The notes under the pieces are model-generated. The model was not told the origin of the DNA. It did no database searches and saw only the letters and a program-made list of their open reading frames with translations. Shown here piece by piece: positions 1,943 through 40,322 of a stretch of 64,000 nucleotides of DNA. Position numbers and translations under genes: made by a program. The DNA is from an uncultured virus (IMG/VR IMGVR_UViG_3300046474_000019). Its lineage: Duplodnaviria; Heunggongvirae; Uroviricota; Caudoviricetes. The stretch lies in IMG/VR virus record IMGVR_UViG_3300046474_000019; one strand, given 5' to 3'. Positions within the stretch are counted from its first letter, which is position 1; every line of letters starts with the position of its first letter.

Positions 1943-1971
1943 TTGACGTAGGGCAATTGCCGTGTTAGTAT
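1943..1971 (+). promoter_or_regulatory. sigma70-like promoter driving ncRNA copy A
   Basis: TTGACG-N17-TAGTAT with extended TG; back-to-back with the leftward promoter. Confidence 0.7.
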
Positions 1972-3058: not shown

Positions 3059-3133
3059 TGGACGGAAGCTAAGCGGTCAGGCATCGGACTTTTAATCCGA
3101 ACATGCTGGGTTCGATTCCCAGTCGTCCAACCA
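3059..3133 (+). tRNA. tRNA-Lys(UUU)
   Basis: Cloverleaf; TCGGA-CTTTTAA-TCCGA; GTTCGATTC; CCA end. Confidence 0.9.
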
Positions 3134-3138
3134 AATAT

Positions 3139-3226
3139 AGTAGATTGGCTGAGAGGCCGAAAGCAGCGGATTGCTAATCCGTAGGATGTAAAAGTCCCGT
3201 GAGTTCGAATCTCACATCTACTGCCA
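3139..3226 (+). tRNA. tRNA-Ser(GCU)
   Basis: GCGGA-TTGCTAA-TCCGT; long variable arm; GCCA end. Confidence 0.92.
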
Positions 3227-3351
3227 GAATGATCAAGTCGCTCTTGATAAGAAAACTGCATCGACGTGAGGGGTTCGCGGTCGGGTTGCACTCGGAATGT
3301 TGCGATAGTCCGGTAGGGGTATGAGTCCCAAGTAGAACCCTTTAAATTTAT

Positions 3352-3441
3352 AGCGGGTAGGCTTCATGGCGAAGAAGCAGTTTAGAAAACTGTCCCACTG
3401 GTTAGTAGCCGGTGAGGGTTCGATTCCTTTACCCGCTGCCA
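3352..3441 (+). tRNA. tRNA-Ser(AGA), A34
   Basis: AGCGGGT/ACCCGCT acceptor; GCAGT-TTAGAAA-ACTGT; long variable arm; G73-CCA. Confidence 0.75.
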
Positions 3442-3448
3442 AACAAAC

Positions 3449-3525
3449 GGGCCTTTGATGCAATTGGCAGTCGTGCTTCACTCAAAATGAAGATGTTCCC
3501 AGTTCGAATCTGGGAAGGCCCACCA
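3449..3525 (+). tRNA. tRNA-Leu(CAA), short variable loop
   Basis: GGGCCTT/AAGGCCC; CTTCA-CTCAAAA-TGAAG; ACCA. Confidence 0.85.
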
Positions 3526-3530
3526 AACAA

Positions 3531-3604
3531 GCTTCGTTCGTCTAATGGTAGGGCCGTTGCTTTACACGCAACAGACGGAGGTTCAATTCCTTCACGAAGC
3601 ACCA
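3531..3604 (+). tRNA. tRNA-Val(UAC)
   Basis: GTTGC-TTTACAC-GCAAC; ACCA. Confidence 0.9.
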
Positions 3605-3752
3605 AACATCACAAAGTAATCGCGTTAGGGTTCGATTCCCTCCCAAGCCTCGGCGGACACCTGAAAGGGTGTGGTTCACAAAGCGGATGAAACGTGACTA
3701 GAGAGCAACTGAAGGATGGCCATCTGGATGAAGCTCTCGGTACTAATTTAAT

Positions 3753-3829
3753 TGAGGGATGGCGGAACTGGTAGACGCGCTGGACTTTGAATCCAGCAAT
3801 TGTGGGTTCGACCCCCACTCCCTCTTCCA
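3753..3829 (+). tRNA. tRNA-Gln(UUG)
   Basis: CTGGA-CTTTGAA-TCCAG; CCA end. Confidence 0.88.
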
Positions 3830-4049
3830 AAATTTGAATGACTAGCCTTACCGCACGGCCTAAGCGTTTACTATTGTTGTGGAGATAAAATAGTAGAACG
3901 ACCAACGGAGGGGCAGTGTCCACTACTCGTAATCTTGAGTCATTCAAACCAAACATACCGCGCCTTGGTATGGACAATGTGATAACCAACATCACAAAGT
4001 CGTTGACGCTCAGGAGACAGCGTGTTATAAGTGTCTCCTACGAATTTAT

Positions 4050-4124
4050 GTCTGAGTCTGCTAACGGCAAGCTGCTGGCCTCCAAAGCCATGCGATCTGG
4101 GTTCGAATCCTAGCTCATTCGCCA
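4050..4124 (+). tRNA. tRNA-Trp(CCA), mismatched acceptor stem
   Basis: TGGC-CTCCAAA-GCCA; GTTCGAATC; GCCA end. Confidence 0.75.
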
Positions 4125-4129
4125 AATAT

Positions 4130-4206
4130 ATCCTCATAGCTCAACTGGACAGAGCAAGGGTCTTCTACACCCAAGGCTGAGGGTTCAAATCCTTCTGGGG
4201 ATACCA
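4130..4206 (+). tRNA. tRNA-Arg(UCU)
   Basis: GGGT-CTTCTAC-ACCC; ACCA. Confidence 0.9.
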
Positions 4207-4213
4207 AATAGGA

Positions 4214-4663
4214 GTGCAGATGATAGCTTGTGGATGCTGCGGTACGCAGACAAAGAATAAAAAGTATTGCAGCAAGTCTTGTTCTGCAACTGTGAACAAC
4301 CTTAAACCAAAGCGTGCAAGAAAACAGTGGTTCTGTGTTGATTGCAGCGTAGAGGTCACACATCGTAGGCAGTATTGCGATGATTGCGATCCAAGATGTA
4401 GAGGCGACATTACACTTGCAGAGGCTATCTACAAGAAGCACCACAGATCGTCTGCATTTGCCCTAGTAAGAACAAGAGCAAGGGTTGTAGTTAAAAACGA
4501 ACCAACAGTTTGTGAAGTATGCTCTTACGATAAACATATCGAAGTAGCCCACGTTAAAGGTGTCGCTGAGTTTTCAGAAGACACGCTGCTCAGTGTGATA
4601 AACGATAGAAGTAATTTAAGACTGCTATGCCCTAACTGTCACTGGGAGTTGGATAATTTATAA
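4214..4663 (+). CDS. HNH endonuclease inside the tRNA cluster
   Basis: CEVC...EVAH...NLRLLCPNCH; N-terminal Zn fingers (KYCSKSC). Confidence 0.85.
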   Translation: MQMIACGCCGTQTKNKKYCSKSCSATVNNLKPKRARKQWFCVDCSVEVTHRRQYCDDCDPRCRGDITLAEAIYKKHHRSSAFALVRTRARVVVKNEPTVCEVCSYDKHIEVAHVKGVAEFSEDTLLSVINDRSNLRLLCPNCHWELDNL

Positions 4664-4743
4664 AAGATTTTAAATAAACGCTTGACAGAATGTATTTGTC
4701 GTGTTTAAATACTCATATGAATCAGACATTAAAGGAGAAACAA

Positions 4744-4866
4744 ATGGCAAAGCCATATGATGCAACAAAAGAACACACTCCGGTTGACAAGACACGCTTG
4801 AAAGATAGTAAAGGCCGTCATCCGAATAAAGGACGTAAGGATAAGCATCCTACCTCCGGTAAATGA
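4744..4866 (+). CDS. 40-aa basic small protein
   Basis: AAGGAG RBS; MAKPYDATKEHTPVDKTRLKDSKGRHPNKGRKDKHPTSGK. Confidence 0.6.
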   Translation: MAKPYDATKEHTPVDKTRLKDSKGRHPNKGRKDKHPTSGK

Positions 4867-4872
4867 TTTATT

Positions 4873-4950
4873 GGGCGATTGAAGGGAATTGGTCTACCTT
4901 CCTGACTTAGAATCAGGAGCTTCTCGGTTCGAGTCCGAGGTCGCCTACCA
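4873..4950 (+). tRNA. tRNA-Leu(UAG), short variable loop
   Basis: CCTGA-CTTAGAA-TCAGG; ACCA. Confidence 0.85.
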
Positions 4951-4965
4951 ATTTAAAGTAACAAT

Positions 4966-5042
4966 GCTCTTGTCGTCTAAAGGTATAGGATTGCTGACTT
5001 TCAATCAGTTGATGTTGGGTTCGAGTCCCACCAAGAGTACCA
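4966..5042 (+). tRNA. tRNA-Glu(UUC)
   Basis: GCTGA-CTTTCAA-TCAGT; ACCA. Confidence 0.88.
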
Positions 5043-5046
5043 ATTT

Positions 5047-5121
5047 GGTCTTATCGTATAACGGTTATTATACTCGCCTGTCTAGCGAGGGAACGGAGTT
5101 CGATTCTCCGTAGGACCGCCA
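5047..5121 (+). tRNA. tRNA-Asp(GUC)
   Basis: CTCGC-CTGTCTA-GCGAG; GCCA. Confidence 0.9.
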
Positions 5122-5126
5122 AACAT

Positions 5127-5202
5127 GCTGGAGTACGCTAGTGGCCAAGTGACCACCTTTGTAACGTGGATGCCGTCAGTTCGAATCTGACCTTCAGCAC
5201 CA
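5127..5202 (+). tRNA. tRNA-Thr(UGU)
   Basis: CCAC...TTTGTAA...GTGG; GTTCGAATC; ACCA. Confidence 0.8.
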
Positions 5203-5208
5203 ATTAAT

Positions 5209-5283
5209 TCCCGTGTAGCTCAGCGGTAGAGCAACTGCTTGATAAGCGGTAGGTCGGTTGTTCAAGTCAACCCACGGGAACCA
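5209..5283 (+). tRNA. tRNA-Ile(GAU)
   Basis: ACTGC-TTGATAA-GCGGT; ACCA. Confidence 0.9.
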
Positions 5284-5376
5284 ACTTCGGGCTTTGCCCT
5301 TAGATGCCTCTCCAGACGACTGAGTTGGTCTGGGATATAGAGAAGGCTTGAAGGCGCTTACAACAAACTAATTTAA

Positions 5377-5453
5377 TGCGAGTTAGATATTCTGGAGAAT
5401 ACGCGGGCCTCATAAGCCTGATTAGGTGAGTTCGATCCTCACACTCGCAACCA
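5377..5453 (+). tRNA. tRNA-Met(CAU)
   Basis: CGGGC-CTCATAA-GCCTG; ACCA; Met, fMet or Ile2 identity not resolved. Confidence 0.85.
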
Positions 5454-5579
5454 AACATGTGCTCCCCGCGTGTACAGCCAGTTGAGTGTGCTGTATAAAT
5501 ATAGTCTCTATCAACGTAGTAGTCTACGGATGACCCGGATTGATGCGTCTGGATAAACGACTACAGCATCAAGAATAAT

Positions 5580-5657
5580 TGGTAGTGAGCCATCCGGGTG
5601 AGGGCACTTGACTGTTAATCAAGATGAAGAGTGGTTCGAGTCCACTACTACCAGCCA
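5580..5657 (+). tRNA. tRNA-Asn(GUU)
   Basis: CTTGA-CTGTTAA-TCAAG; GCCA. Confidence 0.9.
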
Positions 5658-5663
5658 AACAAA

Positions 5664-5752
5664 GCGTCGTGATTTATGGGGACTGGGATTCCCGCTGGGC
5701 TGTAAACCCGGTGTCCAAGACTGCGTGGTTCGATTCCGACCATGACGCACCA
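5664..5752 (+). tRNA. tRNA-Tyr(GUA), atypical
   Basis: CTGGG-CTGTAAA-CCCGG; extra nucleotides before the D arm; bulged T arm; ACCA. Confidence 0.65.
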
Positions 5753-5757
5753 AACAA

Positions 5758-5832
5758 CTCGGGGTATCTCAGAGGCAGAGAGCTGGTTTTGGAAACCAGA
5801 GGTCGAGATTTCGAAATTCTCCCCCGTGACCA
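5758..5832 (+). tRNA. tRNA-Pro(UGG)
   Basis: CTGGT-TTTGGAA-ACCAG; ACCA. Confidence 0.8.
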
Positions 5833-5934
5833 ATTTTGCTGTAAAGGATTGTGACAGCCCATGCTGCACGGTTCGTACCCTGTCCAATTAGTTGAAAGGC
5901 GAGACGGATAAGAAAGGGCAGCAAACGCGACAAT

Positions 5935-6008
5935 GGGCTGTAAGAATTTCGATAGTTCGCCTGCCTTGCACGTAGGAGGGGCCAGTTTGACTCTGGCACG
6001 GTCCACCA
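5935..6008 (+). tRNA. tRNA-Ala(UGC)
   Basis: CCTGC-CTTGCAC-GTAGG; G3:U70 present; ACCA. Confidence 0.85.
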
Positions 6009-6014
6009 AATTCC

Positions 6015-6087
6015 GCAGGTACGCACAAGGTGTGTCGCCGGCCTTCCAAGCCGTGTAGCAAGGGTTCGATTCCCTTTATCTGCTCCA
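6015..6087 (+). tRNA. tRNA-Gly(UCC)
   Basis: CGGC-CTTCCAA-GCCG; U73-CCA. Confidence 0.85.
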
Positions 6088-6092
6088 AACAA

Positions 6093-6166
6093 CGCCTGAT
6101 AGTTTAATATGGAAAACACCGTGGATAAGCTGCGGAAGTTGTGGTTCGATTCCACAAAGGCGACCA
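6093..6166 (+). tRNA. tRNA-like gene with non-canonical anticodon loop (pseudo-tRNA?)
   Basis: D arm, T arm (TGTGG-TTCGATT-CCACA) and ACCA present; loop GATAAGC lacks U33; acceptor stem imperfect. Confidence 0.6.
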
Positions 6167-6170
6167 ATTC

Positions 6171-6246
6171 GCATTCTAAGCTAACTAGGTAGAAGCACTG
6201 GATTGAAACCCCAGAGGATGAGGCTCGATACCTCAAGAATGCACCA
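6171..6246 (+). tRNA. tRNA-Phe(GAA)
   Basis: GCATTCT/AGAATGC; CTGG...TTGAAAC...CCAG; ACCA. Confidence 0.85.
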
Positions 6247-6328: not shown

Positions 6329-6357
6329 CAACCCTCTTCTTGAGGGTTTTCTTGTTT
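6329..6357 (+). terminator. rho-independent terminator ending the tRNA operon
   Basis: AACCCTC-TTCTT-GAGGGTT followed by a T-rich tail. Confidence 0.7.
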
Positions 6358-6769: not shown

Positions 6770-8239
6770 ATGGCTGACGATATGGTCTTTGACTTGGACC
6801 CTAACGTCATCGGGCCAAAGTCGAAAAAGCAATACGACTTCATGCATAGCGAAGCAGATATTACCGTATTCGGTGGAGCTGCTGGAGCAGGCAAAAGTTA
6901 TCTGGGTGTTATGGATTTCCTTAAACACGTCCAGTATCCAAAATTCCGTGGTTGTATGGTAAGACGTACAACTCCACAACTTAAAGGTCCGGGCGGACTC
7001 CAAGAGAAAGCCGAAGAACTCTTTAAGCTGATTGATCCAAAGGTAAGATGGCGTGATAAAGAGCACCACTTCCTCTTCTCTAACGGAGCTAGAATTTACC
7101 TCCGTCACTTCGAAAACCCAAAAGACACTGAGAACTTCCAAGGCTGGGAAGTAAACCACTTCCTTGTGGACGAAGGCCAGCAGTTTGAAGAAATGATGGT
7201 TGAATACCTCACTTCTCGTATGCGTAACCCTAAGTGTCCAGAAGTTAAACCTCACATGAAGATCACTTGCAACCCTGACTATGGTAGCTTCTTGCGTCAT
7301 TGGTTGGATTGGTGGCTTGATTCAGAAACTGGAATTCCTCTTCCTGAGAGAGACGGCATTGTTCGTTACTTCCTCAAGATGGATGGTAAGATGATGTGGG
7401 GCGATACGAAGGCTGAGTTGATTGAGAAGTATGGTAAGCCGCATCTAGCCCATGATCATGAAGACCAAGTTAAACCTCTCAGCTTCAAATTCATTGCAGC
7501 TAACGTCTACGACAACCCAGTTCTATGTAAAGCACAACCAGAGTATGTTGGTTGGCTTGAAGGATTAGGTCGTGTTGAGAAGGCTCGCCTACTTTATGGT
7601 AGTTGGCTTGCACGTGCTGAAGGTACAGGATACTTCAAATCGCAATGGTGCAACATGGTGACTCAACGTGACCTGAAATCTATTAAGAGAGTAAGAGCGT
7701 GGGATATCAGTGGTACTGTTGAATCTGAAACCAATCGAAACCCTGACTGGACTGCTGGTGTTCTCATGAGCAGAAACAAGATGGGCATCTATACAGTTGA
7801 AGATGTTGTTCGTGATCGTCGCCGTCATGGTGGTGTATTCGACATGATTCTGGAAACTGCGAGACACGATGGTGATGATGTACAAATTATCGTTCCATGC
7901 GACCCCGGTGCTGCCGGTAAAGCTTATGCTGCTCAGCTCATTCGTGACTTAGCAGATCATGGTTTTATGGCTCGTATGAAAACAACTAACAAATCTAAGG
8001 TCACTCGATTCGCTCCTTTTGCTGCAACAGCAGAAGCTGGTAGCGTTGAGATTGTAGAGGCTGACTGGACGAAGGACTACTTGCTGGAACTTGAACGTTT
8101 CGACGGTAGCAAAAATATTAAGGATGACCAAGTGGACGCCACATCTGATGCTTTCCACGCATTGTCTTCTGAACAATATCTTCCTGACTTCTCGGTCCCA
8201 ACAATGACACAGACTAACCCATTCGCATTCTACAGATAA
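6770..8239 (+). CDS. terL: terminase large subunit
   Basis: Walker A GGAAGAGKS, Walker B LVDEGQQ, TCNP motif III, RAWD and DDQVDA nuclease motifs. Confidence 0.95.
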   Translation: MADDMVFDLDPNVIGPKSKKQYDFMHSEADITVFGGAAGAGKSYLGVMDFLKHVQYPKFRGCMVRRTTPQLKGPGGLQEKAEELFKLIDPKVRWRDKEHHFLFSNGARIYLRHFENPKDTENFQGWEVNHFLVDEGQQFEEMMVEYLTSRMRNPKCPEVKPHMKITCNPDYGSFLRHWLDWWLDSETGIPLPERDGIVRYFLKMDGKMMWGDTKAELIEKYGKPHLAHDHEDQVKPLSFKFIAANVYDNPVLCKAQPEYVGWLEGLGRVEKARLLYGSWLARAEGTGYFKSQWCNMVTQRDLKSIKRVRAWDISGTVESETNRNPDWTAGVLMSRNKMGIYTVEDVVRDRRRHGGVFDMILETARHDGDDVQIIVPCDPGAAGKAYAAQLIRDLADHGFMARMKTTNKSKVTRFAPFAATAEAGSVEIVEADWTKDYLLELERFDGSKNIKDDQVDATSDAFHALSSEQYLPDFSVPTMTQTNPFAFYR

Positions 8240-26484: not shown

Positions 26485-29196
26485 ATGGACCTGATTAAAT
26501 ATGACATGACGGACATTTGGGCCGTCGCTGGCGACGTAGTTGCCCCAGACTCTGTTAAAGTAAGAGCAGGTTGGGGTGTTGAAGTTGTTCCTCGTCAATG
26601 GTGGAACTGGTTCGAAAACCGTCAAGACAACAACATTGCCTACATGCTTCAAAAAGGTTTCCCTGAGTGGGATGACACAACTGAATACATTATCAACAAG
26701 TCCTACGTGCAACGTAACGGTATTGTCTATCGTGCCACTGCTACAAGCACAAACTCCGACCCAATTGCATTGACAAGCTGGGTAAAAGCTTTTATGGATT
26801 CTGCTCCATACCTAGAACTGCTTAAAGCTCTTTCTGTGTCCAACAACACAATGCCGTACATTGATGGTACTGGAGTTGCACAGAACACTGCTACAACAGC
26901 CTACGGACGTAGTGTTCTTAACGTAGCTGACGCTGCTGCTGCTCGTACTCTGTTTGCTGCTCAAGTATCTCATGCCAACCTTACTGGTTTGTCTAGCGTG
27001 TCTGGCTCTGCCAACAACCTGCCATACTTCACTGGCTCTGGTAACATGGCTGTTACAACCTTCACTGGCTTTGCTCGCTCTCTATTGGATGATACTGATG
27101 CCGCTGCAATGCGTGCAACTCTTGGTGTTTACAGCACAACAGAAGCTGACACAGCACTGACTAACGGGCTTAACACTCGCCAGCCACTGGACGCAACACT
27201 GACAGCTCTAGCTGGATTGGCAACTGGTGCAAACCAACTTGCGTACTCCACAGGTACTGACACCTTTGCTCAAACACCTTTGACAGTATTCGCACGTTCC
27301 ATCTTGGACGACGCTGATGCCGTAACTGTTCGTAGTACAATTGGTGCTGACGATGCGGCTAACTTGACAACTGGACTTCTGGCCTTGGCCCGTCTTCCAG
27401 CGACTCTGACAGGTAAGAACTCTTCTACAGCAACTGCTTTGGAAACAGCTCGTACAATTCAAGGTGTTTCTTTTAATGGTACAGCAAACATTACATTGTC
27501 TGTAGTTGATAAAGATAGTGGCACTGGCTCTGCTGCACTTCCTGCTGGTACATCTGCTCAACGTACTGCGTCTCCTGCAAACGGTATGCTTCGTTACAAC
27601 AGCGAAACAAACGAATTTGAAGGATACCAGAATGGTGCATGGGCTGGTATTGGGGGTGGTACTCCACTGTACACTGTACTTTGGTGGCCTAACCGTGCTT
27701 CGATTCCTGCTGGATATATCCCTGCTGACGGACAACTGCTGACACGTACAAGCTATCAAGCTGCATTTGCTGGTGTTAACTCTGGAATCCTTCCTGTAGT
27801 TTCTGATGCAACATGGTTGGCAACATCGACAAGCCGTGGTTGCTATACAACAGGTAACGGAACAACAACCTTCCGTATTCCAGACTTGAACGGTAAGACT
27901 GCTGGCACAACTGCTGCTCCATTCCTACGTGGTGATGGTACAAACTCTACAGGGATCGCTGGTAACTTCCAAGCTTCTGATAACTTAGCTCACACGCACG
28001 CGACAACGTATGACACGGTTACGGATCTATTCGCTGGTGGTGGTATCAGTAGAACATTTGTACAAGCTTATGACTCTTCTAATAATGTGGCTACACTCTC
28101 GTCTGGTGGAGTTGAATCTCGTCCAGTTAACGTAACTGGTGTGTTCGTAATCAAGTTGATTGGTGGTGCTTCTGAACTATCGCAAGACGATGCTTCTGTA
28201 GCAGTTGCTGCACTTGATGCGCGTGTTTCTGCTCTTAGTAACCGTAACCGTATTATCAACGGAGCTTCTTTCATTGCACAACGTGGTAGCGGAGTATTTT
28301 CAAATGGCCTCTCTGGATACGGCGGCCCAGATAGATTCTTTACTATCAACTCTGGGGGTGGTGGTCAATTTACACAATCACAAGGCACTCTTGTGTATGG
28401 GGGTGTAACCAAATACTGTGTTACACAGACTGTAAACTCCGTAGTAACTGACCTATCTGGTGTTAAATTCTGGGGTGGAATCCAACAATCCATCGAAGGG
28501 CTCAACTCTTACGACTTACTTGGTAAGCCTGTAACTGTATCTTTCTTGTTCAAAGCTAGCGTCACTGGGACATATTCTGTAGCTGTTCGTGATGCAGCAA
28601 CGACAGCAAACTCCTACATTACAACATTCGCAGCTACTGCCGGAGTTGTGACTAAAGTTATTGTAAACGTTCCGGCTATCCCAATTGGGGCTAATATTCC
28701 AAATACGCAGGCCCAAGGTCTTCAAGTTTGGATTGGCGCCATTAACAGCGGGACTTATAATACTGCTACAACAGGAGCATGGTTGTCCGGCAGCTTTATC
28801 TGTGCATCTACAGCGGCATTGTGGGGTACAACAGCAGGTGCAAATATTTCGGTAACAGAGTTGCAGTTGGAAGTCGGACCTGACGCCACATCGTTTGAAT
28901 ATAGAAACCAAACCCAAGAGCGCTCTATGTGTCAACGTTACTATCAAACCGTCACAGTATCTGCAAGGTTCCCAGCGACTGCCGGTAGCCAACTAATAAG
29001 CCATAGTATTATGTTTCCAGTTGTTATGCGTGCCACTCCAACTGCAACTCTGACAACATCTGGAAGTATTCAAAACCTAGCGGCGGCGAGCTTGTCTGCA
29101 CCTGAGTCTCTGTCTGCTAGATTTGAAATCCAATCTACCTCGGCAGGGGATTGCTACGCCCTTAACCGGGGTTACGCATTGGACTCTGAAATTTAA
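26485..29196 (+). CDS. long tail fibre
   Basis: 903 aa; ARTIQGVSFNGTANI, collar-like FRIPDLNG...ESRPVN; C-terminal NRIING...CQRYY domain. Confidence 0.88.
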   Translation: MDLIKYDMTDIWAVAGDVVAPDSVKVRAGWGVEVVPRQWWNWFENRQDNNIAYMLQKGFPEWDDTTEYIINKSYVQRNGIVYRATATSTNSDPIALTSWVKAFMDSAPYLELLKALSVSNNTMPYIDGTGVAQNTATTAYGRSVLNVADAAAARTLFAAQVSHANLTGLSSVSGSANNLPYFTGSGNMAVTTFTGFARSLLDDTDAAAMRATLGVYSTTEADTALTNGLNTRQPLDATLTALAGLATGANQLAYSTGTDTFAQTPLTVFARSILDDADAVTVRSTIGADDAANLTTGLLALARLPATLTGKNSSTATALETARTIQGVSFNGTANITLSVVDKDSGTGSAALPAGTSAQRTASPANGMLRYNSETNEFEGYQNGAWAGIGGGTPLYTVLWWPNRASIPAGYIPADGQLLTRTSYQAAFAGVNSGILPVVSDATWLATSTSRGCYTTGNGTTTFRIPDLNGKTAGTTAAPFLRGDGTNSTGIAGNFQASDNLAHTHATTYDTVTDLFAGGGISRTFVQAYDSSNNVATLSSGGVESRPVNVTGVFVIKLIGGASELSQDDASVAVAALDARVSALSNRNRIINGASFIAQRGSGVFSNGLSGYGGPDRFFTINSGGGGQFTQSQGTLVYGGVTKYCVTQTVNSVVTDLSGVKFWGGIQQSIEGLNSYDLLGKPVTVSFLFKASVTGTYSVAVRDAATTANSYITTFAATAGVVTKVIVNVPAIPIGANIPNTQAQGLQVWIGAINSGTYNTATTGAWLSGSFICASTAALWGTTAGANISVTELQLEVGPDATSFEYRNQTQERSMCQRYYQTVTVSARFPATAGSQLISHSIMFPVVMRATPTATLTTSGSIQNLAAASLSAPESLSARFEIQSTSAGDCYALNRGYALDSEI

Positions 29197-29210
29197 CAGG
29201 AGATAAAATT

Positions 29211-29558
29211 ATGTACAAACTAAAAGGGGAAGGTGTTATGCACCTTCCAAGTGAAATGCACATTCCGTTTGCAGAAGGTAATAGACACTATGTTCAATAC
29301 CTTGAATGGTTGGCAGAAGGTAATACTCCTGAACCTGAAATTGGTGAAGCCGAGTTGAATGCTCGGCTCGAACTGAAAGCCCGTGATCTTCGTAACGCTG
29401 AACTAGCACGTGCAGATGTTATGCTCAACAGAGTTCAAGACGGAGAGACTGGAATCGGAACACAGAAGGCTTGGCGAGCATATCGTGTAAGCCTTCGCGA
29501 CTGGCCCTCTACAGAGAGTTTCCCATTGGATGCTCCAGTAGCCCCAGACGCTAAATAA
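29211..29558 (+). CDS. tail fibre assembly chaperone
   Basis: IPFAEGNRHY..YLEWLAEGNTP; WRAYRVSLRDWP. Confidence 0.8.
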   Translation: MYKLKGEGVMHLPSEMHIPFAEGNRHYVQYLEWLAEGNTPEPEIGEAELNARLELKARDLRNAELARADVMLNRVQDGETGIGTQKAWRAYRVSLRDWPSTESFPLDAPVAPDAK

Positions 29559-35311: not shown

Positions 35312-35449
35312 TCATTCGTCCTCTTCTGTATAAGGGCGCTGCCCCTCTTCAGTGCAAAGAGGGCAGAACGTCTCGCTGTAGAAAATCTCATGCTCATCGC
35401 ACAAGCTCTTTGGATTGCAACTCTCACAATCAACAACCATGCAACGCAT
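35312..35449 (-). CDS. 45-aa Cys-rich acidic protein
   Basis: MRCMVVDCESC...FCPLCTEE; TAATG overlap with the ligase stop. Confidence 0.6.
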   Translation of the reverse strand: MRCMVVDCESCNPKSLCDEHEIFYSETFCPLCTEEGQRPYTEEDE

Positions 35450-36591
35450 TATTCCTCCTTCAGCAAGTATGCATTGCTGATAACTTTGAACGAGAAGTCA
35501 CGTGTGGTGCTCTTGTAGACAAACCCTTCACGGAATTTACCTTTCAAACCGCTTGGCCCTTCAGCCCGAGTAAGCACTTCAGCAACTGTCGCAGCCTTCA
35601 GAGGGCCAGTGTAGTTAACTGGAACGTGCTTCACACCGTTGTCAGTGCAGAATTTGATTCGCTCAGCGGGCAACATGTAACGCTGCTCATCAATCAGGAA
35701 CACGTCGTAGCAGAAGAATGTGTTCTTGTCAACACCCTCGAAGTTCTTCTGGATAGAAGGCCCGCACATCTCACCTTGAATAGCAATGTTACGACCATCA
35801 CGACGAATTGCTTCGATCAAACCAGCTTCAGTCGCCATCTGTGTGAAAGCGTTGTCGTCTTTCTTGATTACACGCTGCCACTTCGCAGCACGTAGACCGC
35901 GAGAGCGCAGATGGCTAAAGAAAGTAATGGCCGTATCAACCAGCCCACGTTTCTCATCAGCCATACGGAAACCCACGTTACGGCTTGCCACGCCAGCCAC
36001 ACCGTTATTAACAAACGCAGTAAGAGAGCTTCCATCAAGTTTAAACGACTCCTCAAATTCTTCCCCGTCAGCAACAGCCTTAAGGTACATGTGTGTGATG
36101 TTTTGCACGCGGGTTTGGTCAGTCTTTGGCACAAACTTTGGGAAGCCCAGAGCAGTGCTGCCAGTCTTGACACCCATGCCACCAGTGTTATTCATGCTCG
36201 ACTCTTCAGCTTTCTCGTATTTGACGACGCCGAGAGCTTTTGTGACATCATCGCCAACGGCTGCCTTAATACCAGTCTCAGACAACGGCACACAGAAACC
36301 CTGAGACAGTTGCTTACGCAGCTTCATGGTCTTGATACGTGCATGTGTGCGGCCATCCACTACGTGGAGCAGCTTGCTCGACAGTGTTGCCAGAGAGTTG
36401 AAGTATGGCCGCTCAGTATCAAGCAGGGAGTCCACTTCAAAGTATACGGCTGGTGTAACACCCACCTCGTACAAACCTTTCTGCACAACCACTTGCCAGC
36501 CGCCAACGAGGGCAAGCTCAATACGGTCAGCACCTTCGATTGGCAACAGTTGGTCGATCAGGACGACACGGGCCAGAGAACGTTCGCTCAT
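35449..36591 (-). CDS. RNA ligase (DRB0094/Rnl2-like)
   Basis: IEGADRIE, PKTDQTRVQN, KLDGSS, QGEMCGPSIQKN, REGFV, SFKVISN. Confidence 0.9.
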   Translation of the reverse strand: MSERSLARVVLIDQLLPIEGADRIELALVGGWQVVVQKGLYEVGVTPAVYFEVDSLLDTERPYFNSLATLSSKLLHVVDGRTHARIKTMKLRKQLSQGFCVPLSETGIKAAVGDDVTKALGVVKYEKAEESSMNNTGGMGVKTGSTALGFPKFVPKTDQTRVQNITHMYLKAVADGEEFEESFKLDGSSLTAFVNNGVAGVASRNVGFRMADEKRGLVDTAITFFSHLRSRGLRAAKWQRVIKKDDNAFTQMATEAGLIEAIRRDGRNIAIQGEMCGPSIQKNFEGVDKNTFFCYDVFLIDEQRYMLPAERIKFCTDNGVKHVPVNYTGPLKAATVAEVLTRAEGPSGLKGKFREGFVYKSTTRDFSFKVISNAYLLKEE

Positions 36592-36624: not shown

Positions 36625-36652
36625 AGAATACAGCAAAATCTTATGGTGTCAA
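36625..36652 (-). promoter_or_regulatory. sigma70-like promoter for the RNA ligase
   Basis: TTGACA-N16-TATTCT on the minus strand. Confidence 0.65.
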
Positions 36653-36656
36653 CCCC

Positions 36657-36684
36657 TTGACAGAAGAAGTTTCCATGCTACTAT
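36657..36684 (+). promoter_or_regulatory. sigma70-like promoter driving ncRNA copy B
   Basis: TTGACA-N16-TACTAT with extended TG. Confidence 0.75.
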
Positions 36685-36690
36685 TCATCA

Positions 36691-36978
36691 CGTCGCAAGG
36701 GAGACATGTCTGAAAACACTCACCGACTTGCGGGAACACGCCCTATGAAGAGGTAAGCTGTTGGGGCTGCTGAGGTTGAATGAGAGAACAGTACAGCGAT
36801 GACCCGCAAGGGGAAGGCTCTCAATCTATAGTGTCCCATGACACCGGCTTGCGATCTCAATTTTGGATAGCATAGGATAAACCTCAAGGCATGTCGAGGC
36901 GGTTAACTCCGTATGGCAAGCCTTGGGATAGGTTTATCTCGACAATACGAAACTCATTTTGGATAGGAGCAAGATATG
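36691..36978 (+). ncRNA. unknown structured ncRNA, copy B (homolog of 1978-2296)
   Basis: Conserved blocks and compensatory helices relative to copy A. Confidence 0.75.
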
Positions 36979-37386
36979 TGCCAAGTGACAGAACACATCA
37001 ATAACTGGCCCAAGTATAAAGCTGAACGGGACGCTCTCAAGGAGTCGAGAGATTGTGTCGTGGTGTCCTTCTGCGAGATTTGGGGAGCACCTTATCGTGA
37101 TGCCCACACGCATATAAAGAAGATGTTTGGACGTAAGAACCGCCGTGGGACAGATACAGATAAGTGCAGAGATGCCATTGCTCGCTGCCCAAAGACAAAG
37201 ATGGCTAAGCGCGAATGGGAAGTTGCTGAACGTCCAACCCTCAAGAAGTTTTGCGAAATGCATCCAAAAGGTAAATACTGGGTGTTTGTTAGTAAACATG
37301 CCCTTGCAGTGATAGACGGAGTTGTGTATGATCACACCCACGGTCTTCGCCGTAAGGTCAAATTCGCTTTCAGGGTATATGTGTGA
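36976..37386 (+). CDS. putative papain-like Cys peptidase
   Basis: DCVV...HPKGKY...HALAVIDGVVYD gives a Cys-His-Asp arrangement (inferred). Confidence 0.5.
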   Translation: MCQVTEHINNWPKYKAERDALKESRDCVVVSFCEIWGAPYRDAHTHIKKMFGRKNRRGTDTDKCRDAIARCPKTKMAKREWEVAERPTLKKFCEMHPKGKYWVFVSKHALAVIDGVVYDHTHGLRRKVKFAFRVYV

Positions 37387-37595: not shown

Positions 37596-37786
37596 ACAAC
37601 GAACTGATGGCGGCATTTAAGGCTCTGCGTGTTAGCGAGCGTACATGTGTGTTGCAAGATTTGGGATACAACATGCATCCAGCGGTTCATGAGACAGGCA
37701 GTGAGTTTGCCCTGCGAGTCTTGCGTCAAGTGTCAAGTGATGGTATTGTGCGGCAACTGGAAACTGCTATGCTGAGGTTTCAGTGA
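37592..37786 (+). CDS. hypothetical protein
   Basis: ATGA overlap; GGAG RBS. Confidence 0.6.
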   Translation: MNNELMAAFKALRVSERTCVLQDLGYNMHPAVHETGSEFALRVLRQVSSDGIVRQLETAMLRFQ

Positions 37787-38292
37787 GGGCCAGAGCGTCC
37801 AGCCTGACTGAACAAGAGTCTTCCGAAATCCATAAAAGGTTTTGGAGTAAGGTAGACAAGTCAGGTGATTGTTGGGTGTGGACATCAAACTCTATTAAAA
37901 ATAGAGGACTGTTCAAGGTCTTTGGTGATAACATCTACGCACCGAGAGTATCCTACGCAATGGAGTGTGGCGAGATTCCAGAGGGGATTTCGGTATGCCA
38001 TACGTGCGATAATCCAGCTTGTGTGAAGCCTGAGCACCTATTCCTCGGCACTGACGCAGATAATTCAAAGGATAGAAACGAGAAAGGTAGGCAAGCAAAG
38101 GGTGAAAAATCTGGTAGAGCAGTTCTCACTGAGAAAGACGTTTTACTAATCAGGGAGAAGATTTACCTTGATTGGCCCTTGACAGACATCTCTAAATTAG
38201 GTTACAGTTACACATCTGTTGTAGACATTAAACGAGGAAAGTCTTGGGCACACGTCCCAAACCCTTTCGCTATTCTGAACAACGCGATTTAA
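37783..38292 (+). CDS. HNH endonuclease
   Basis: RFWSKVDK..DCWVW, VCHTCDNPACVKPEHLFLGT. Confidence 0.9.
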   Translation: MRARASSLTEQESSEIHKRFWSKVDKSGDCWVWTSNSIKNRGLFKVFGDNIYAPRVSYAMECGEIPEGISVCHTCDNPACVKPEHLFLGTDADNSKDRNEKGRQAKGEKSGRAVLTEKDVLLIREKIYLDWPLTDISKLGYSYTSVVDIKRGKSWAHVPNPFAILNNAI

Positions 38293-39716: not shown

Positions 39717-40322
39717 ATGAAACTCATTAGAGGTGTTGGCATTAAGGATGTTAAGGTTGCAAGCGATTGTCCTTTCTATATCAAGTGGAAGAATATGATT
39801 GACAGGTCGTATGGCCCAAAAACCGGAAGGAATAAAACTTACACAGAATGCTCTGTATGTGAAGAGTGGTTGATATTCTCCAACTTCAAAGCTTGGATGG
39901 AAGCTCAAGATTGGAAGGGTAAAGATTTAGACAAAGACTGGCTTGTCCGTGGCAGCACTACCTACTCACCCGAGACTTGTATGTTCGTAACGCCAGAACA
40001 CAACAAGCTTCTAACAGGTTCTGAGTCTACTCGGGGAATCTATCCAATAGGGGTGAGTTACAGACAGAAAGCACCTAGTATGGTTAATGAGCTTAAGCGT
40101 CCGTATAGAGCTTGTATCTGTATTGACGGAGAGTTTGTAAGCCTTGGGTCTTTCTCCACTCCAGAGGCTGCTCACGCATTGTGGCAGATTACAAAGATGC
40201 AGGTGTTAAAGCGTGAGTTTGAGAAGGAAGGTCTTGACACAAGACTGAAAGGTGCTATGATGACCCGTTACGAGCTGCTGCTCAATGATCTAGCCAGCGA
40301 AAGGGAGACAGAGTTTTTATGA
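39717..40322 (+). CDS. HNH-like homing endonuclease (LDKD/YSPETC family)
   Basis: VCEEWLIFSNFKAW, LDKDWL, YSPETC. Confidence 0.75.
   Translation: MKLIRGVGIKDVKVASDCPFYIKWKNMIDRSYGPKTGRNKTYTECSVCEEWLIFSNFKAWMEAQDWKGKDLDKDWLVRGSTTYSPETCMFVTPEHNKLLTGSESTRGIYPIGVSYRQKAPSMVNELKRPYRACICIDGEFVSLGSFSTPEAAHALWQITKMQVLKREFEKEGLDTRLKGAMMTRYELLLNDLASERETEFL

Follow-up and report, generated by a model that had tools for sequence, protein, structure and literature searches.

Two copies of a structured RNA, A (RNA 1974-2296) and B (36691..36966), both on the plus strand, were found in the window (the whole stretch of 64,000 nucleotides that was analysed); they are members of an uncatalogued family of ~285-320-nt structured RNAs of Pseudomonas myophages and share one conserved, pseudoknotted fold, far beyond chance. 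Covariance model R1 gave exactly two matches in the window, copy A with 266.4 bits and copy B with 264.4 bits (match 36688-36972). The window comes from an Otagovirus-type Pseudomonas myophage whose closest record is that of phage PPSC2, with 91.5% identity across 97% of the query. Rfam 15, run on the window, held no family at gathering score for either copy, and the only matches were 16 tRNAs; among weak rows up to E 10, the best was E 3.5 for copy B (13.1 bits; gathering 36) and E 0.078 for copy A (21.5 bits; gathering 80). The RNA family is not described in the literature searched on structured RNA, ncRNA and transcriptomes of Otagovirus, Flaumdravirus and Pakpunavirus; by sequence and fold, the RNA class is absent from the catalogues and papers searched.

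Copy B is composed of the following parts, all on the plus strand. Helix P1 (36693-36699 with 36727-36733; compensatory changes in 6 of 7 pairs) has inside it the conserved GGGAGACATGTC (36699-36710) and CACTCACCG (36717-36725); GAG 36701-03 and CTC 36719-21 are putative pairs, the letters of which are invariant, so that covariation is uninformative for them. Helix a (36741-36744 with 36763-36766) encloses TATGAAGAG and the 5' strand of the pseudoknot, helix b, in which GCTGT 36757-36761 is paired with ACAGC 36793-36797 and which crosses helices a and c. Helix c (36781-36786 with 36818-36823) encloses hairpin d (36803-05 with 36810-12; GCAA loop) together with conserved ACAG and GGAAGG. Hairpin e (36831..36844; conserved CCAT loop; compensatory changes in 4 of 5 pairs) is followed by the two-tier hairpin J/G (36849..36872), of which the loop and 3' arm form the repeat DR1 (36859-36870), and by the long 3' hairpin domain h (36875..36940), which contains invariant GTATGGC (36911-36917) and an internal loop that may resemble a tetraloop receptor. 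The single-stranded tail (36943..36966) consists of CAATACGAAACTCA and the repeat DR2 (36955-36966); DR2 meets the Shine-Dalgarno AGGAG (36965-36969) of the first gene behind copy B, which is separated by 6 nt from the start codon ATG (36976-36978), and the first-pass annotation had thus correctly seen the second repeat run into the ribosome-binding site of ORF 36976. The 14-mer CAATACGAAACTCA was tried as a family search pattern and dropped (mostly chance loci). Hairpin e is dispensable, since it is absent from copy B of phiPsa374 (1501-1766 of the fetched locus), in which J/G, domain h and a matched repeat AGCAGCACA are kept. In a pakpunavirus copy B (locus position 1678), 13 letters near the J/G hairpin are missing in 4 of 4 public runs relative to the IMG/VR contig; this difference is natural length variation of the hairpin.

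Twenty relatives from deposited phages were used for a MAFFT alignment without structure input, A2 (22 sequences: 10 A-type, 12 B-type). RNAalifold on A2 proposed 46 pairs, 29 of them compensatory; after addition of hairpin d and the pseudoknot, 54 pairs in 11 helices were obtained. For these, 97.7% of cells were paired in the 22 sequences and 36 pairs were compensatory, which upholds the earlier suggestion of a conserved fold with variable stems; controls: shuffled alignments 77.3% paired, slid partners 38-45%, observed value reached in 0 of 500 shuffles. All five pseudoknot pairs were compensatory, with 99.1% paired in 22 sequences and 79.5% in 55 sequences. A second alignment (55 distinct 5' domains, including environmental members) gave 91.5% of cells paired and compensatory changes in 20 of 25 pairs. 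At the J/G place, 25 of 27 members form a local hairpin when folded singly, the region being paired differently in the copy-B folds of PPSC2 and KIL3; the stem letters vary between members (TGC/GCA, CAC/GTG, ATGC/GCAT, CAAG/CTTG and others). Single-sequence folds were modestly better than shuffles (z -2.6 for B, -4.3 for A); as this is little better, the evidence for the fold is comparative. Likenesses to a K-turn, a hammerhead and a T-loop, noticed by eye, were set aside because the defining letters are not conserved across A2.

Pairwise alignment of A and B showed 73% column identity, B being gapped exactly at the two extra hairpins of copy A, GACAGAGCAATCTGTC (2119-2134) and ATGAGGAAACTCAT (2171-2184), as had been remarked beforehand; all the sequence statements of the first-pass annotation proved right. 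The first of these is present in 9 of 10 A-type rows of A2 (not PAK_P1) and in 0 of 12 B-type rows; the second, ATGAGGAAACTCAT, was seen only in copy A of this phage. Behind copy A stand a 64-aa Cys-rich ORF, a 129-aa ORF and then 16 tRNA genes, the cluster lying ~760 nt downstream of copy A. The tRNA cluster (16 genes, Rfam) extends over 3059-6243 and ends at a terminator-like hairpin (6330-6348); a further 11/12 promoter was located at 2597-2624, between copy A and the tRNAs. Most A-type copies of the alignment share a conserved CA-rich stretch, ACATACAACCACCTAA, ~20 nt behind DR2.

Exactly two copies were found in 7 of 7 whole genomes (PAK_P1, B31, UAVern, Y1-MI, phiPsa374 and two IMG/VR pakpunavirus contigs), and model R1 gave two in PAK_P4 as well, at 29050-29335 and 89167-89459; the genomes searched with the model were Otagovirus-, Pakpunavirus- and related phages. 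Two more distant complete viral contigs contained one copy each (model R1); the whole PAK_P3 record (KC862299) gave 0 matches to the model. Among viral contigs with the 5'-motif pattern, 43 of 45 loci matched R1, some only partly; metagenome loci yielded at least 28 R1 matches from 80 loci fetched among the matches listed; bacterial and archaeal genomes held 91 pattern loci, and 2 of the 80 fetched were true members, both on MAG contigs of ~35 kb. By blastn among deposited phage records, copy A was detected in 184 and copy B in 69. In a maximum-likelihood tree of 30 distinct copies, the 13 B-context copies fell on one side of a single branch (support 96/94); from this split, the A/B duplication is older than the split of the genera. 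In distant members the 5' core is kept (P1, helix a, the pseudoknot, helix c and the invariant GGAGAGAUAUGUC and CACUCACCG), and the 3' domain is either reduced, with a repeat spacing of 75 against 96-116, or absent.

Copy B lies directly behind a sigma-70-type promoter (36657..36684, plus strand; TTGACA, 16 nt, TACTAT; TG before the -10 box; predicted start near 36691), which stands back to back with the divergent promoter of the RNA-ligase cassette (36625..36652, minus strand); the promoter of copy A (1943-1971, plus strand) has a divergent partner as well (1938-1911). Promoter-like sites (score at least 9/12, -10 box ending 14-18 nt before the GAGAnATGTC motif) were found in 28 of 47 members, 25 of them among the 27 high-scoring full-length copies of the Pseudomonas-phage type. 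The divergent -35 boxes form an inverted repeat, TGTCAA-N4-5-TTGAC, before both copies (36647-36662, 1933-1948) and in relatives; it could also be the site of a dimeric regulator. No terminator-like site was found by motif scan after copy A or copy B in the window. The earlier proposal of a 5' leader agrees with the promoter directly upstream of copy B, the absent terminator and a 3' end that abuts the ribosome site. Intrinsic terminator-like sites farther downstream were at shuffle level (6 vs 6.6 and 12 vs 11.6, observed vs shuffled), and copy B is followed within 13 kb by at least five other 11/12 promoters that lack the RNA; it is therefore not evident that read-through is needed.

No RNA run over the locus was found among the public runs searched; in four public runs over the pakpunavirus copy B, the contigs spanning the whole locus were DNA-like and had no joints. 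For PAK_P4, a supplement table (PMC5563952) lists similar normalised counts for gp041 and gp042, behind copy B, at 3.5 and 13 min, and counts that rise late for gp171 and gp172, behind copy A; the operons behind both copies are thus transcribed, these counts concerning the genes and not the leader. Cumulative GC skew (2-kb bins) has local minima at ~2 kb and ~36 kb, the places of copies A and B; the skew stays around zero or below over the plus-strand structural genes (22-36 kb) and turns strongly positive beyond 36 kb.

A same-strand ORF of at least 35 aa stands behind the RNA in 39 of 40 listed loci; in 7 of 13 B-lineage loci, its start lies 2-4 nt behind the model end. Most relatives have a DUF4326 gene directly behind copy B (2-4 nt); in the window a phrog_3754 protein takes its place, and of the DUF4326 gene only the first four codons, ATGTGCCAAGTG (MCQV, 36976-36987), remain. 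Since these codons stand before an unrelated gene, the swap took place exactly at the end of the leader/start-codon module. At copy A loci, phrog_5019 is always upstream on the opposite strand, and a Cys-rich 64-aa gene follows after ~90 nt, in some loci with an inserted HNH gene separating it from the RNA; in distant members, an SF2 helicase gene is behind the RNA. The variety of downstream genes (DUF4326, peptidase, Cys-rich 64-aa gene with tRNAs, SF2 helicase) is consistent with a general operon-head module that is not gene-specific. HNH and GIY-YIG-type endonuclease genes are found just behind the leaders in several phages (window, 37783-38292 and 39717-40322; KIL loci), which suggests that operon heads are insertion hot spots.

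The gene divergent from copy B in this phage codes for an RNA ligase (35449..36591, minus strand; PF09414 3.4e-22, PF21189, phrog_968). The possible tie to the ligase that the first-pass annotation had suggested does not extend to the homologs: among 13 B-type loci, 2 have the ligase as immediate divergent neighbour, in KIL3 it is the second gene, and the gene-neighbourhood survey found copy A without a ligase nearby. ORF 36976 (36976..37386, plus strand; 136 aa; phrog_3754) had been called a putative Cys peptidase. Pfam gave no match for its protein; C27 and H108 are invariant in 30 homologs, and the phage 16Q homolog is named 'putative peptidase' in one source. With the predicted structure (pLDDT 92.4), Foldseek gave nothing at E≤0.001; VIA-align gave a best Z of 7.0 (ComA C39 domain), a Z below 8 being possible for a merely common arrangement, and its best 50 rows are dominated by cysteine peptidases and deubiquitinases. 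The invariant pair and the papain-like structural neighbours speak for the call, a best Z of 7.0 falls short of proof, and the product is probably a papain-like (C39-type) cysteine peptidase.

Within copy B, DR2, CATTTTGGATAG (36955-36966), repeats DR1, AATTTTGGATAG (36859-36870). Over the family, DR2 recurs ~96-116 nt downstream of DR1, behind domain h; an exact shared word of 8-14 nt, with 32 different cores, is present in 41 of 43 distinct full-length RNAs, and its mean length is 9.9 within RNAs vs 6.4 for regions paired across different RNAs. In close relatives, single-letter changes are mirrored in both repeats (ATTTTGGATAG, ATTCTGGATAG, ATTCTAGATAG, ATTTAGGATA, GTTTTGGATAG). Upstream of the core, the two copies of the repeat are alike and co-vary (ACGAtCTCA vs ACGAAACTCA); there is an exception, a three-letter change in DR2, which abolishes the stem of the J/G hairpin itself. 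When a complementary partner of the repeat was sought in cis, the best matches lay at different places in each member, and the whole phiPsa374 genome contained no perfect complement. An 11-nt perfect complement, GTATCCAAAATT, at 6934-6945 was set aside as probably due to chance (coding sequence of the terminase large-subunit gene). At the first letter after the core, where a transition bias would be a sign of both repeats pairing with one strand, 37 pairs gave A/G 14, C/T 2 and transversion 21, i.e., no clear bias. We know of no other structured RNA in which the two copies of an internal repeat change together with no complementary partner.

A closing helix between the two ends of the element had also been proposed. 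In copy B, CATGTCT (36704-36710) can indeed pair 7/7 with AGATATG (36972-36978), and in copy A GTCTGC and GCAGAT can pair. The full 7/7 match occurs only in this phage, 18 other B-type copies giving 2-6/7 in a survey that located start codons with a crude pattern, wrongly in a few cases; in these copies the 5' side changes from T to G, A or C and the 3' side is unchanged. The copy A counterpart is present in 2 of 10 A-type rows of A2. Conserved 5'-3' pairing in homologs, on which the first-pass annotation had itself staked this proposal, was contradicted by the homolog comparison; the partial match is explained by the near-palindromic (C/U)AUG on both sides.

The reading to which we tentatively lean, at somewhat under an even chance, is that copy B is a cis-acting leader for the operon behind it; its action in cis and its effect on transcription or translation are what we infer. 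Host sigma-70 RNA polymerase would start copy B 2-4 nt before helix P1, the RNA would fold into the pseudoknotted 5' core, two variable hairpins and the long 3' hairpin domain, and transcription, meeting no terminator, would run into the first gene of the operon. The conserved 5' core would then meet a partner (transcribing polymerase, ribosome or small ligand), and the 3' domain and the repeat would relay the result to the operon, in copy B at the ribosome site that the repeat touches. A leader is favoured over its rivals because of the fixed place at the first bases of the transcript, the lack of a 3' end signal, the ribosome-site contact in the B lineage and the conserved core joined to a variable platform; the architecture resembles that of a sensor with a platform, the 5' core being present in every member and the 3' domain shortened or absent in distant ones. 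The identity of the loop letters of the repeat is not accounted for by the leader model. The energies gave no support to a two-state switch: with DR1 blocked, pairing of the J/G 5' strand elsewhere costs 4-18 kcal/mol (21 members), and these thermodynamics count against the leader reading.

The ornate fold would also be apt for a stable RNA that acts in trans, as a scaffold, decoy or catalyst, after being cut from the early transcript at its 5' end; the genes behind it would merely share its promoter. The presence of at least 10 helices, a pseudoknot and many invariant unpaired letters would be in keeping with such an RNA, as would two diverged paralogs kept since before the genera split and the spacer of ~90 nt between copy A and the next ORF; large ornate phage-linked RNAs, e.g., ROOL and GOLLD, do exist, as the portion of the source available indicates (PMC12286853). 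It is rated unlikely, if still a serious rival, the 3' end of both copies in the window having neither a terminator nor a known processing site and copy B, in most B-type loci, overlapping the ribosome site of the gene behind it. The internal repeat, its two copies identical and not complementary (at least 8 nt in 41 of 43 RNAs; 9.9 vs 6.4) and with no complementary RNA partner found in cis, would fit an RNA that acts by sequence identity, DR1 pairing with the template strand under DR2 so that an R-loop primes replication or holds the operon head open. The GC-skew minima near both copies (~2 kb, ~36 kb) and the helicase gene headed by the RNA of distant relatives lie on that side; the skew is confounded by transcription direction, though, and any nascent RNA has its own template as a complement in any case, a second copy being not obviously needed, and we regard this as improbable. 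An R-loop at the head of each gene block would give every genome two replication origins primed by RNA, or two operon heads kept permanently open; the chance of this is slim.

Two identical sites flanking a compact hairpin domain, next to an RNA ligase gene in this phage, could also be cut and rejoined by a nuclease with the phage ligase or by the RNA itself, domain h being freed as a small circle and the core spliced to the mRNA. This is very improbable: a ligase gene directly adjoins copy B in only 2 of 13 B-type loci and never stands beside copy A, the repeat differs between phages, which a sequence-specific nuclease would not tolerate, and neither copy is matched by an Rfam ribozyme family. 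That the element is a small protein gene or a chance similarity is refuted by the covariation and the ORF comparison and has a next to negligible probability. Short ORFs were called over it in some deposited records, on either strand, and the conserved 5' motif contains an AUG; the called ORFs differ in strand and place, however, the ORF from the AUG has 3-52 codons, the invariant CACTCACCG is read in all three frames across members, and the covariation is that of base pairing. A leader peptide from the conserved AUG was likewise rejected, its frame and length not being conserved across members.

Among the known systems compared, the putL and putR RNAs of phage HK022 (~70 nt, two stem-loops) bind polymerase and suppress terminators in cis, according to the part of the source available (PMC9378689). 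Like them, as far as that part goes (PMC9378689), the present RNA occurs as two related copies per genome, each behind an early promoter for the host polymerase, with no dedicated protein needed. It differs in size (~285 nt vs ~70 nt) and in architecture (11 helices including a pseudoknot vs two stem-loops), no sequence likeness was seen, and the downstream terminator-like sites were at shuffle level in the motif scans. A put-like antiterminator is the closest known analogy, and it fails on size and architecture.

The RNA shares with riboswitch and T-box leaders its 5' leader position, a core that is conserved and pseudoknotted, and a 3' part that is more variable and reaches the ribosome site. 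Competing helices typically show repeated strands. Here, unlike there, no Rfam riboswitch or T-box model matched, the genes behind the RNA are of unrelated kinds, some letters of the repeat lie in a loop and are explained by no alternative helix, and the energies give no clear alternative fold. ColE1 RNA II and the T4 origin transcripts are R-loop primers, with a persistent RNA-DNA hybrid at the replication origin; they too are promoter-proximal structured transcripts, and identity of the RNA with downstream DNA would permit pairing, but no origin is mapped or known at the sites of copies A and B. ROOL and GOLLD, which are often near tRNA genes, are likewise large, ornate and phage-associated, and copy A is near a tRNA cluster; the present RNA differs in having no Rfam match, in being much smaller and in its place at the transcript 5' end.

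PAK_P3 sRNA1 and sRNA2 (ncRNA1 and ncRNA2) are, like the present RNA, small RNAs of a related Pseudomonas myophage; in the portions of the two sources available, they are placed beside tRNA genes and described as processed 3'-UTR pieces without a start site of their own (PMC4933390; bioRxiv 10.1101/2023.10.13.562163). They are a different family, since model R1 gave 0 matches in the record or in their 2.7-kb stretch. PAK_P4 sRNA1 (91948..92050; the only sRNA listed) was considered as a family member and rejected, as it lies elsewhere.

What is new is the family itself, together with an internal repeat whose two copies evolve in step and have no complementary partner that could be found; the job of the RNA may prove to be a familiar one, e.g., leader control. 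Its carriers include therapy and biocontrol candidates of the PAK_P1, PaP1, JG004, phiPsa374 and KIL types and many environmental viral contigs. As the RNA heads two gene blocks behind strong host-type promoters, its function bears on how these phages start and pace infection.
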